Assembly (NCBI RefSeq): GCF_022846255.1
Contig: NZ_AP025682.1
DNA length: 64,000 nt
Strand: one strand, 5' to 3'
From: Escherichia coli
Lineage (GTDB): Bacteria; Pseudomonadota; Gammaproteobacteria; Enterobacterales; Enterobacteriaceae
Part shown: piece after piece, positions 1 to 36,543 of the stretch
Numbering within the stretch: position 1 is the first letter of the stretch
How the letters are laid out: each line of letters opens with the position of its first letter
Translations under genes and position numbers: made by a program
Notes under the pieces: generated by a model
The model's database searches: none
Seen by the model: the letters and a program-made list of their open reading frames with translations, nothing else
Told to the model about the DNA's origin: nothing

Positions 1-1938
1 GATTATGGCATCTGCGTGCGTACAGGCCATGGCTGGCTGGCGCTGGACTGTGATAGCGAAGATGAAGACATTCAGGCAGATATTCGTAAAACGCTTGTGC
101 AACTTCTGGGTGAGTTGCCGCCGCGACGCTGGCGAGCAAACAGTAATAAGTGTCTGTATCTGCTGGCCGTTGATGGTGATTTCCGTAAGCGTATCCATCG
201 CCTGGCGGGGGATATGGGCATTATCGAGTTGCTGGCGAACGGGCAGCAGTTCGTTGCCTGCGGTACGCACAGCAGCGGCGCGCGTATTGAATGGGACGGC
301 GGTTTGCCGGATGAACCTCCGGCTATTACTGGTGAGCAGCTTGAAACGCTGTGGCAGCGCCTGGCTGAACAACTCCCTGTGTCGGTAACCACCGAAGCGG
401 GCAACACGAAGATGCGCGACCGATCAGCATTCACGCCCGGCGCGACGGATGATACAGCTGAATATCTTGATGCCAATGGCTGGACGCTGCTGGATGGCGC
501 AAATGGTGAACGATATATCCGCTGTCCGTTTGAAGACGGCCACAGTAGCGGGGGCGATCCAACAAGCACAGTTTATTTTCCTGCGGGAACCGCGGGCTTT
601 GAGCAGGGGCATTTTAAATGCCTGCATGCCAGTTGTGCGCATCGTGATGACGGAGATTTCCTTAATGCCATCGGGATCCGCAACGACGATTTCGAAGATC
701 TGACCAGCACCGAAGTGGCGGAACCTTTACCGCTGCCTGCTTTCGAGCGTGATAAATGGGGGCGTATCGAGGCAACCATCAGCAACGCAGCAAAAGCAGT
801 AGTACGCCCTGATTTTGTGGACATCGATATTCGCTTTGACCAGTTCCGCGACGAAATCATGTTTGCCCCTGCAGGATCCGGACAATGGCGGGCATTCACC
901 GATGCGGATTATGCGCGCCTGCGCATCACGATGGAAAAGCGGGGATTTAAACCTGTTGGTCGTGAACTTATTCGCGATGTGGTGTTACTTGCAGCCGATG
1001 AACAACCATTCGATTCAGCGATCACCTGGCTGAACGGACTGGAGTGGGATGGCGTGCCGCGCATCGAATGTTTCTACCATACGCACTTCGGTACAGCCGA
1101 CACGCCTTATACCCGTGCGGTGTCTATGTACATGTGGACCGCGTTGGCGGGGCGAGTACTGGAGCCAGGCATCAAAGCGGATATGGTGCCGATCCTCGTT
1201 GGTCCGCAGGGCTGCGGTAAGTCTTCCGGAGTAGAGGCACTGAGCCCTGATCCTGCGTTTTTTACTGAAATCTCTTTTGCCGAAAAAGACGATGATCTCG
1301 CTCGAAAAATGCGTGGTCGGCTGGTGGCAGAGATTGGTGAACTGCGCGGACTTAATACCAAAGAGCTGGAGTCAATCAAAGCGTTTGTGACGCGTACTCA
1401 CGAAAACTGGATCCCGAAATACCGGGAGTTCGCCACCCAGTTTCCTCGTCGCCTGGTGTTCGTTGGTACCACCAATGAGGACGAATTCCTTGCGGACAAG
1501 ACTGGTAACCGTCGCTGGCTCCCCGTGGAAGTGTCGAAAGTCGACGTGAAAGCGATAAAAAGAGATCTCCTTTTACTTTGGGCTGAGGCTCGTGAGGTGT
1601 TTCAGCGTCTGGGGGGTATCCAGTTCCGTGAGGCTGAACAACTGGCAGCGAGTGTCCATGAACAGTACACCATCAAGGATGCTTGGCTTGAAACGGTAGA
1701 GAAATGGCTCGACACGCCAGACCTGATGACTAATGAACTTCCGCGAAATTGCGAATTTTTACGCGCAAGTGATGTTTTGCGTGATGCGATTGGGCTAAAT
1801 CCTGACCGCATCGGAAAACGCGAAGAAATGCGAATTAGTAATGTTTTGCAAAATTGCGGGTATAAGCGTGCCCAAAGGCGAATTGGGGGGAAAAAATGCA
1901 AGGTTTGGGAACCGCTGGAACCACGCGGAACCACCTAA
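1..1938 (+). CDS. Phage DNA primase / replication protein, P-loop NTPase (VirE / P4-primase C-terminal-like); 5'-partial
   Basis: Reading frame is open from nt 1 (no stop before the GTG at 16), so the gene starts upstream of the window. Walker A-like GPQGCGKSS, Walker B-like LVFVGTTNE, N-terminal CxxC/HxxC cluster. Confidence 0.6.
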   Translation, partial: DYGICVRTGHGWLALDCDSEDEDIQADIRKTLVQLLGELPPRRWRANSNKCLYLLAVDGDFRKRIHRLAGDMGIIELLANGQQFVACGTHSSGARIEWDGGLPDEPPAITGEQLETLWQRLAEQLPVSVTTEAGNTKMRDRSAFTPGATDDTAEYLDANGWTLLDGANGERYIRCPFEDGHSSGGDPTSTVYFPAGTAGFEQGHFKCLHASCAHRDDGDFLNAIGIRNDDFEDLTSTEVAEPLPLPAFERDKWGRIEATISNAAKAVVRPDFVDIDIRFDQFRDEIMFAPAGSGQWRAFTDADYARLRITMEKRGFKPVGRELIRDVVLLAADEQPFDSAITWLNGLEWDGVPRIECFYHTHFGTADTPYTRAVSMYMWTALAGRVLEPGIKADMVPILVGPQGCGKSSGVEALSPDPAFFTEISFAEKDDDLARKMRGRLVAEIGELRGLNTKELESIKAFVTRTHENWIPKYREFATQFPRRLVFVGTTNEDEFLADKTGNRRWLPVEVSKVDVKAIKRDLLLLWAEAREVFQRLGGIQFREAEQLAASVHEQYTIKDAWLETVEKWLDTPDLMTNELPRNCEFLRASDVLRDAIGLNPDRIGKREEMRISNVLQNCGYKRAQRRIGGKKCKVWEPLEPRGTT

Positions 1939-2090
1939 AAGAGAAGGTGGTTCCACCTTGCAGACCTTGTGGCAAGCGGGGCGGAACCACTGGAACCACC
2001 TTTCTACTAGAAACCCCATATATATATATAAGTCGATTGAGGGAAAGGTTAGGAAAAGGTGGTTCCAGGTGGGGGCAGGTGGTTCCACTC
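1905..2090. repeat. Iteron array flanking an AT-rich tract; putative phage origin of replication
   Basis: At least 8 copies of GGAACCAC(C) in both orientations (direct about 1908, 1917, 1927, 1983, 1992; inverted GGTGGTTCC about 1946, 2058, 2078) around (TA)n at 2018-2030. Overlaps the 3' end of the primase gene. Confidence 0.5.
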
Positions 2091-2217
2091 CGCATTAGCA
2101 ACTTTTTGCATGTTGATACATGCAATATGCGAATCGGAACTGCGTTATCCACACCCACGGATAAACAGACGTGGTTCTCAGAAAATTTTTTCGTAGCAAA
2201 ACGTAGAGGTCAGAGCT

Positions 2218-2671: not shown

Positions 2672-3013
2672 ATGGCTCTGATCAGCGTTCGCAACAGATT
2701 TGAAAGCTTCATGGAACAGAGGTACCCAGACCTGTCGTTGCAGGTCAAAGGTAATATTAGCGCATCAATGAAGGCTCAACTTGGCATCAGGATTGAACGA
2801 GAATTGTACAGTGAAGATGTTACTTACTGTGATTCAGCAGTTCAGTTGATGTGGACACTCTTTCAGGCAGGTGTTCTGGCCGAACGAAGAGCTACCAGCG
2901 TTACGCTTCCTGCGCTGAAGGCAAAGCCGGATAGCTTATACGATGCGGGTTATAACGAAGGTATTCAGGACTGTCGTAAACATCTGACGGCATCAGGCAT
3001 CAAGGTAAGATAA
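2672..3013 (+). CDS. Hypothetical protein, 113 aa, between Q and the lysis genes
   Basis: ORF starts 31 nt after Q stop and is followed by a hairpin terminator; no recognisable motif. Confidence 0.4.
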   Translation: MALISVRNRFESFMEQRYPDLSLQVKGNISASMKAQLGIRIERELYSEDVTYCDSAVQLMWTLFQAGVLAERRATSVTLPALKAKPDSLYDAGYNEGIQDCRKHLTASGIKVR

Positions 3014-3080
3014 AAAATAGTTGTGGAATTCCAAAAAGCCGATTAGCCTGATATCCGTTGAAAACAGTTCATCACGAAGA

Positions 3081-3104
3081 GGCTTCCGCAAGGGGGCCTT
3101 TTTT
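3081..3104 (+). terminator. Rho-independent terminator (GGCUUCC-GCAA-GGGGGCC + U6)
   Basis: 7-bp stem including G-U pairs, GCAA tetraloop, T-run 3099-3104, downstream of the 113-aa ORF. Confidence 0.4.
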
Positions 3105-3109
3105 ATTGC

Positions 3110-3334
3110 CCCATTCTGGGGAAAAGTTAATAAAACAGGGCTTTCGCTGCGAAAAAACGCTATGCAGTTTTTGCCCTTTTTTATGCACCTTTTATTCACT
3201 CGAATTTCGTCATTCTGGACCACTTAAGTTGATTAAATAGGCCTTTCATCGCAAATCTATTGCGAGCGGGGATCGTGTGGTTCCTATAACGTACATTATG
3301 TTAAATCACCTTCTTTTTTAACAAATTTAACAAG
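3110..3334 (+). promoter_or_regulatory. Putative Q-dependent late promoter / qut region (inferred by position only)
   Basis: Non-coding, AT-rich stretch between the Q-operon terminator and a strong terminator just upstream of the holin, analogous to lambda pR'-tR'. No confident -35/-10 assignment. Confidence 0.3.
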
Positions 3335-3357
3335 GTTCGCTATGGCGAACTTTTTTT
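3335..3357 (+). terminator. Rho-independent terminator, candidate tR'-like terminator upstream of lysis genes
   Basis: Perfect hairpin GTTCGC-TATG-GCGAAC (3335-3350) followed by T7 (3351-3357). Confidence 0.55.
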
Positions 3358-3458
3358 GTATTCAGGGCCCACCGAAGGACGGCTCATAACCCAATCCTAC
3401 GGGCGTATACGCAGGGCCCGCCTTTCAACAACACCCCGTAATGGCGGAGGTGGGAAGT

Positions 3459-36358: not shown

Positions 36359-36543
36359 AGTGGCTCATTCGCCGACTTATGTCAGCCCCTTCGGGACGTG
36401 CTACATAAAATTCGAATGACGCACAACAAGGTGCCTGCCGTCCAACTTCTGATATCAGCGTAGCTATATCAACCATCGGGCGAAACGTCGAGTTAGGCAC
36501 CGCCTTATTCCATAACAAAGCCGGGTAATTCCCGGCTTTGTTG
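36359..36543 (+). ncRNA. glmY: Small regulatory RNA GlmY
   Basis: Begins AGTGGCTCATTC right after the sigma54/sigma70 promoter and ends at hairpin AAAGCCGGG-TAATT-CCCGGCTTT plus U-run; lies between purL and glrK. Confidence 0.75.

Follow-up and report, generated by a model that had tools for sequence, protein, structure and literature searches.

We report on a repeat array in a 64,000-nucleotide stretch of Escherichia coli DNA (contig NZ_AP025682.1 of RefSeq assembly GCF_022846255.1; hereafter the window), situated at the 3′ end of a prophage gene for a primase-helicase. From sequence comparison and structure prediction, we consider it probable that a temperate phage of E. coli, akin to APSE-1 and YeP4, has its replication origin at positions 1908-2086, and that this origin is read by the C-terminus of the primase-helicase. 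We favour this reading because the repeats are enriched, the duplex at their centre is of low stability, the domain architecture of the protein and the precedent of known replicons agree with it, the layout is conserved among relatives, all copies within a locus change in concert, and their sequence co-varies with that of the protein. A first-pass annotation of the window had proposed an iteron-type origin beside, and partly inside, its initiator gene at 1905-2090; these coordinates enclose the element accurately, and the proposal itself gains support from homology to the initiator Rep1 of Staphylococcus aureus pathogenicity island (SaPI) 1, from fold predictions, and from the conservation and wing co-variation described below.

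The word GGAACCAC occurs nine times on the two strands of the window, compared with 1.69 ± 1.14 expected from dinucleotide-preserving shuffles (maximum 4; 0/100 shuffles reach nine), and seven of the nine exact copies fall inside 1917-2086, so the repeats first noticed in both orientations around a (TA)n tract are real. When sites are scored as 9-mers against GGAACCACC by counting mismatches, the array resolves into the iterons listed in Table 1, with adjacent copies spaced 9-10 bp, or about one helical turn, apart. The first three copies precede the TAA stop codon of the primase gene, as the annotation had it for some of the repeats, and specify the protein tail EPLEPRGTT. Positions 1927-1936 form a 10-bp palindrome with the inverted copy at 1946-1954, leaving 8 nt between the arms, and longer inverted arms match 1906-1936 to 2057-2087 and 1990-2003 to 2055-2068. 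By nearest-neighbour free energy, no other 20-mer in the first 6 kb is less stable than that of the central AT tract, which stands 30th among the 63,980 of the window. The remaining 9-mers with at most one mismatch, and the two remaining exact GGAACCAC 8-mers, are scattered singletons (one isolated GGAACCAC lies at 3277-3284 on the − strand); across the 64 kb scanned, from which the prophage’s left arm is absent, no second iteron cluster was found. In agreement with the first-pass annotation, a CRISPR array (direct repeats of 20-50 bp alternating with unique spacers of similar length) was rejected, as the units here are 9 bp long, occur in both orientations 9-10 bp apart, and come without spacers.

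The gene upstream is open from 16 to 1938 in the window, and its full-length relatives encode 728 aa. The predicted domain order is an archaeo-eukaryotic primase (AEP) primase-polymerase, a Zn-finger-like region, a VapE/superfamily 3 (SF3) helicase and a C-terminal winged helix. The helicase portion matches the VapE domain PF05272 (2.7e-60), and residues 393-657 match SaPI1 Rep1 (PDB 7PDS; E 8e-34), the sole solved structure detectable by sequence, in an alignment that remains colinear until the C-terminal domain starts. The N-terminal 316 aa gave no PDB match by sequence; the predicted fold of this domain matches AEP primase-polymerases and not Toprim. The earlier label “primase” alone understates the protein, in which the helicase and the winged-helix portion would be the parts active at the origin. 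Helices followed by a beta-hairpin are predicted for the last ~66 residues (pLDDT, the predicted local distance difference test, is 74-87 per 10-residue block over residues 81-140), and a PDB profile search with the C-terminal domain matched only the helicase-linker part of 7PDS.

A 1.2-kb query across the region finds matches in 140/5426 complete E. coli genomes (about 2.6%), and over the C-terminal 412 aa the primase is 76% identical to that of Yersinia phage YeP4 and 72% identical to that of Hamiltonella phage APSE-1. We compared 86 loci drawn from E. coli prophages, YeP4, APSE-1 and IMG/VR contigs, taking in 80 IMG/VR loci of 72-100% identity and leaving out 57 more. Absence of the repeats from homologous phages had been named beforehand as evidence against an origin, and the result is the opposite: all 86 loci, including the isolated phages YeP4 and APSE-1, carry the array, with at least two direct copies directly to the left of the AT tract and at least two inverted copies directly to its right. 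The shared design places two or three direct copies at or just past the stop codon (an outer left position filled by 2-3 direct copies in nearly all 86 loci), usually one inverted copy, two or three further direct copies, the core, and then the inverted copies, giving the canonical pattern “>><>>>|TA|<<<” around a conserved core of CCCC-(AT)n-AAG...GGAAAGGTTA; relatives carry three right-hand copies at the equivalents of 2058-2086. Exactly 17 nt separate the last left iteron from the tract, and 27 nt the tract from the first right iteron, in 76 of the 86 loci, and the architecture is kept down to 52% primase identity.

Some variation within this layout deserves recording. The length of (AT)n is 11, 13, 17 or 18 nt among near-identical prophages (window 2018-2030; L001, L007-L086), which looks like microsatellite slippage in the presumed unwinding element, and the 17-nt and 27-nt flanking gaps stay constant despite these changes. 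Most iteron types keep the box GGAAAGGTTA, which lies to the right of the AT tract and ahead of the right iterons (2040-2052 in the window, GGGAAAGGTTAGG); it is present in L082 and L083, whose primases are only ~73% identical, and absent from YeP4 and L079. Positions 1955-1982 of the window, which part the lone inverted copy from the inner direct ones, correspond to a spacer that is AT-rich and conserved in most types (TTTTAAC..ATTGAA.TTTAA); in loci of the GGAACCACC type it gives way, on any backbone, to a sequence that is mostly GC-rich (GC 0.52-0.69, with a single locus excepted). An open reading frame (ORF) annotated as “P4” in APSE-1 (L006, AF157835, 3445-3666) overlies the AT tract and the right-hand iterons and is probably not a real gene.

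There are at least ten versions of the 9-bp iteron, and within each locus all copies share one version around a core that stays conserved, a concerted change that would be expected if a single sequence-specific factor, differing from phage to phage, reads every copy. At 97-98% identity, E. coli primases that accompany three different iterons diverge from one another solely in their last ~25 residues, in the predicted wing. Across 82 loci, 17 variants of the last wing strand (beta3, following an invariant Gly-Lys) map onto ten iteron types without conflict. Written from the residue after the invariant Gly, the pairs are KK[CSR]K[VIL]W with GGAACCACC, KMTRIF with GTACCAACC, KLMKVW with GTTACCACC, KV[QLS][RK]VW with GTAACCACC (with GTATCCACC), KKMRIF with GTCCCAACC, KKQRIW with GTCCCCACC, KQQR[IV]F with TAGACAACC, KQIRVW with TAGACCACC, KVCRVW with GTAACAACC and KVCKVW with GTAACCAAT. 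On a tree of the primase body, at least 34 changes of iteron type are needed (49 with tips shuffled), and a single backbone cluster at 97% identity holds seven iteron types; the repeat/wing cassette has evidently been exchanged often, about 34 times by this comparison, between primases otherwise 97-100% identical. Used as a DNA query against the phage collection, the cassette gave no match, and only the flanking primase and Q genes did.

A blind search of IMG/VR with the GGAACCACC dimer alone recovered a primase only 66% identical, whose wing again reads GKKCKVW, and dimer searches for two other iteron types yielded seven more family loci; six of the eight new family loci found in this DNA-first manner fit the wing-iteron mapping. 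IMG/VR scans with the DNA pattern gave no clear case of a satellite with GGAACCACC iterons, the extra matches being Gly/Ser-coding repeats.

Beyond the family, two VapE-type primases only 28-30% identical overall have matching iterons downstream (L121, 8764-9130, and L146). In L121 the winged-helix part is 43% identical, the DNA-binding end thus being better conserved than the enzyme body, and the wing ends ...GIQRVW, followed by four GTTACCAC copies; L146 carries four AGACAACC copies, and its winged helix gave no significant match. Unrelated viral contigs (L123 10541-10815, also L113; L110, L122; L135, L136, L142) also contain origin-like arrays of the words GTTACCACC and TAGACAACC, direct and then inverted around a centre rich in AT or T. 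The L123 array adjoins the 3′ end of a gene for a 618-aa “DNA primase/helicase” (phrog_8841) without BLASTP similarity to the window primase, and that of L136 lies just upstream of a divergently transcribed small-terminase gene.

The iteron word also dictates the length of the primase C-terminal tail (window 1908-1938; L003, L038, L079 and others). The inspected GTAACCACC and GTTACCACC loci (e.g. L003, L031, L038) have their TAA stop inside the first iteron copy, the GGAACCACC type of the window reads through three iterons, and in a deletion variant (L016, L068) the ORF is longer by 8 residues.

Table 1. Features of the proposed origin and its initiator gene, with positions in the window.
Feature	Position	Strand	Remarks
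Initiator gene, 3′ 1.9 kb	1..1938	+	Truncated by window edge; TAA stop 1936-1938
Predicted winged-helix domain codons, last ~66 aa	1738..1935	+	
Wing hairpin codons	1861..1914	+	beta2 YKRAQRRI 1861-1884, turn GG, beta3 KKCKVWEP 1891-1914
Candidate specificity residues KCKVW	1894-1908	+	Motif tracks iteron type among loci
Exchangeable cassette (wing strand + origin), approximate	1894..2128		Against E. coli relatives, identity lost after GGGGGGAAAA (~1893), regained at GCGAATCGGAACTGCG (~2129)
Outer left iterons, 3 direct copies within coding sequence	1908..1935	+	Repeat and 9-mer scoring
Iteron GGAACCGCT	1908-1916	+	2 mismatches to GGAACCACC
Iteron GGAACCACG	1917-1925	+	1 mismatch to GGAACCACC
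Iteron GGAACCACC	1927-1935	+	0 mismatches
Lone inverted iteron	1946-1954	-	0 mismatches to GGAACCACC
Inner left iterons, 2 direct copies 9 bp apart	1983-1991, 1992-2000	+	1 and 0 mismatches, respectively
Conserved non-iteron core CTTTCTACTAGAAACCCC-(AT)6A-AGTCGATTGAGGGAAAGGTTAGGAAAA	2001..2057 (57 bp)	unstranded	Shared across iteron types
Central AT tract ATATATATATATA, 13 nt	2018-2030		Proposed DNA-unwinding element
Right iterons, inverted, 10-bp spacing	2058..2086	-	Repeat and 9-mer scoring
Right iteron, perfect	2058-2066	-	0 mismatches to GGAACCACC
Right iteron, degenerate GGTGGGGGC	2068-2076	-	3 mismatches; position of relatives’ middle right-hand copy
Right iteron, perfect	2078-2086	-	0 mismatches to GGAACCACC
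Conserved right flank CGCATTAGCAACTTTTTGCA (CGAACATGTAATTTATTGCA in relatives)	2091..2110	unstranded	

These observations suggest the following course of initiation, of which binding, melting, self-loading, priming, bidirectional replication and the role of the wing as reader of the variable bases are all steps that we infer. Upon induction, rightward early transcription would yield Cro and then the 728-aa primase-helicase, whose C-terminal winged helix would bind the 9-bp iterons (GGAACCACC in the window phage), direct and one helical turn apart to the left of the 57-bp core and inverted on its right. As has been proposed for SaPI Rep, a pair of helicase assemblies in opposite orientation could form in this way, and they would melt the (AT)6A tract; the SF3 rings, needing no host loader, would then load themselves onto the single strands, the N-terminal AEP domain would synthesise primers, and the phage’s own family-A DNA polymerase would extend them. 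The choice of iteron would be set mainly by the wing hairpin, through its last beta-strand and one residue of the preceding strand.

Several known replicons provide precedent for parts of this scheme. SaPI Rep is a self-loading SF3 helicase-initiator that binds iterons via a C-terminal winged helix with no need of ATP, and SaPI iterons directly follow rep, divided evenly between the two sides of an AT-rich centre, with the two halves oppositely oriented (PMC9371898). The protein described here is a homologous SF3/VapE-type helicase-initiator, as the match to SaPI1 Rep1 indicates, with a winged helix that is predicted, and the proposed origin likewise lies directly 3′ of its gene with oppositely oriented iterons flanking an AT-rich centre; primase and helicase are fused as in SaPI5 PriRep5 (PMC9371898), and in phage-inducible chromosomal islands (PICIs) of Gram-negative bacteria ori is downstream of pri (PMC10111431). 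The differences are that the carrier here is a complete temperate phage of Enterobacteria and not a helper-dependent satellite, that the iterons are 9 bp long versus 5-6 bp, and that the first copies overlap the last codons of the gene. Judged by its sequence, the window prophage shares the SaPI/PICI replicon type and is itself neither a SaPI nor a PICI. ORF904 of the Sulfolobus plasmid pRN1 has the same prim-pol/SF3/winged-helix order, and 3′ of its gene lies an essential cis element (PMC2777425, PMC4234260). It resembles the window system in its N-terminal AEP primase-polymerase domain and in the inverted-repeat or stem-loop potential downstream (z = -4.87 here), and differs in that its element is a ~100-nt stem-loop without recognised iterons, for which a cognate site was not found, whereas discrete phased 9-bp iterons are present here.

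In phage lambda, iterons overlap the coding sequence of the initiator beside an AT-rich region in the early rightward operon. It is established, too, that initiator and origin specificity co-vary among related lambdoid phages, as with O and ori of Shiga toxin (Stx) phages (PMC7466680). The window system resembles lambda O/ori in having iterons within the initiator gene near an AT-rich region and in its co-variation of specificity; however, it has no O or P homologue, and the DNA-binding part of O is N-terminal and O recruits host DnaB, whereas here that part is predicted to be C-terminal on a self-contained primase-helicase. The alpha protein of satellite phage P4 binds octamer iterons present in both orientations, and in P4 the iterons form two separate clusters, ori and crr, in contrast to the one cluster seen in the 64-kb window, outside of which lies the left arm of the prophage. 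Alpha combines primase, SF3 helicase and a C-terminal winged-helix origin-binding domain in one polypeptide, as predicted for the window protein, and its primase is DnaG/Toprim-like (PMC2777425), unlike the AEP fold found here.

Other explanations of the array must be weighed against an origin bound by the primase-helicase. Its inverted layout confers strong single-strand hairpin potential, the + strand of 1900-2095 folding at -39.9 kcal/mol compared with -25.1 ± 3.0 for shuffles (z = -4.87), and the pRN1 origin 3′ of its prim-pol/SF3/winged-helix gene is defined as a ~100-nt stem-loop (PMC4234260). It is nevertheless unlikely, in our view, that the functional element is DNA or RNA secondary structure, be it a cruciform, a pRN1-like stem-loop origin or an RNA hairpin that tunes read-through into Q within the cro-primase-Q transcript: a stem needs inverted complementarity only, which leaves the tandem direct copies at 9-10 bp phasing unexplained and does not account for one 9-mer word in every arm, and between 1700 and 2700 there is no terminator-like site on the + strand and only one on the - strand, inside the iteron palindrome and no more than shuffles give (mean 1.0). 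The structural and protein-binding readings are not mutually exclusive. A second possibility is that the primase-helicase binds the iterons chiefly for regulation (copy number or handcuffing, autoregulation, or a roadblock delaying Q) and that the origin is elsewhere, which would suit an array placed between the primase gene and Q in one transcription unit, with no sigma-70-like promoter detected in the 1700-2700 scan, and plasmid iterons are established to serve initiation and control alike (reviewed in PMC4980987). We think this distinctly unlikely, given that the AT tract sits exactly between inverted iteron sets at fixed spacing, which is the signature of an initiation site, that the equivalent array of the homologous SaPI system is the origin (PMC9371898), and that the window holds no second array; a regulatory role could coexist with origin function.

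That a different protein binds the repeats, such as CI or Cro, the Q antiterminator, the small terminase (at a pac site) or host DnaA, is very improbable, although the array does lie in the early/regulatory region and a perfect DnaA box (TTATCCACA, 2145-2153) follows 60 bp downstream. The CI/Cro-region clusters (25) and the downstream clusters that include Q (13) assort freely with iteron type, and an identical small terminase, WP_000162796.1, is found with three different iteron types, on which grounds all three were rejected as the iteron-binding factor. The DnaA box occurs in only 23/85 loci, lies outside the exchangeable cassette and travels with one Q-leader type; its presence in so few loci led us to reject it as a core origin element, and with it a DnaA-assisted plasmid-type iteron origin. 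Finally, three copies overlap codons, and the dimer word also occurs inside Gly/Ser-coding repeats elsewhere in IMG/VR, as would be seen if the cluster were a functionless product of chance or coding; yet with no shuffle reaching the observed count, most copies non-coding and the layout kept in 86 loci down to 52% primase identity, this is scarcely credible.

Besides the hairpin potential, several points weigh against the origin reading as we have framed it. The literature searched contained no published origin mapping for this phage group (APSE phages, VapE prophages), and neither Pfam nor NCBIfam names a DNA-binding domain in the protein. The main caveat concerns co-variation: the wing-strand codons lie 1-25 bp from the first iteron, and physical linkage alone would therefore also yield it. 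One lineage moreover departs from the mapping, L111 and L114 pairing KVQRVW with GTTACCACC where six other loci pair it with GTAACCACC. A strict one-to-one code between beta3 and iteron, which the first 86 loci obeyed, was accordingly rejected and replaced, post hoc, by one in which the whole hairpin and not a single strand may set specificity; in all GTTACCACC loci the third residue of beta2, the strand before, is Thr or Ser, where other types have Gln or Leu.

On the broader claim, we see about even chances that the family holds at least ten mutually distinct origin specificities, carried by a ~240-bp cassette of wing hairpin and iterons in which a few wing residues set the variable bases. 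Under such a recognition code, iteron positions 1-4 may be dictated by the two residues that follow the invariant Gly-Lys, position 6 (C or A) by the final Trp or Phe, and T at position 3 by Thr or Ser in the preceding strand.

The array belongs to a complete prophage that also has genes for lysis, terminase, portal and head. Related E. coli genomes run from a leftward repressor gene through cro, the primase-helicase gene, the repeats and antiterminator Q to the lysis genes and terminase, and these relatives, with the order cro, primase-helicase, Q, have no O or P genes. In STEFF_1, an E. coli relative at 99% identity, the left arm of the prophage carries genes for a DNA polymerase, a VRR-NUC nuclease and a DEAD/DEAH-box helicase together with DUF2800 and DUF2815 proteins, all of which fits host-independent replication; an Nmad5 protein is encoded there as well. 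The STEFF_1 prophage (L087; NZ_CP048609.1 1275416-1289000) is integrated beside yfhL, and its Nmad5-family putative nucleotide-modification gene adjoins the DNA polymerase gene, which hints at modification of the phage DNA.

Downstream of the array, the TTATCCACA box sits in an inverted repeat, TTATCC-N8-GGATAA (context 2140-2170), in the leader of the Q gene. An AT-rich gap of 430 bp (3013-3440) extends from the ORF after Q to the holin gene and includes, at 3332-3353 on the + strand, a hairpin with a 9-bp stem followed by a T run; it may be a late-operon leader and terminator for Q action. No Rfam family matches the repeat region, the only Rfam match in the window being the GlmY small RNA at 36359-36506 (+; 143.6 bits), which indicates that the window consists of chromosomal and not prophage DNA in its right-hand part. 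No tRNA genes were found in the window.

The origin design itself is already known from the SaPI/PICI, pRN1 and P4-like type, and the part that might be new to specialists is the exchangeable cassette of wing and iterons with its apparent recognition rules. As read here, the array would give a precise origin annotation for a prophage family that includes the aphid-symbiont phage APSE-1 and Yersinia phage YeP4, and would add complete temperate phages of Enterobacteria to the staphylococcal satellites and archaeal plasmids that share the design of a self-loading helicase-initiator with a 3′-adjacent iteron origin. Natural specificity variants on a near-constant backbone would offer a clean system for studying how the wing of a winged helix reads DNA and for building compatible replicons; if the recognition rules are true, they would amount to a code by which the wing recognises DNA, and the phages would supply ready-made orthogonal replicons. 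For the phages themselves, selection might favour swapping of the cassette, as it would spare the initiator from cross-activation, or from theft, by prophages or satellites resident in the same cell.

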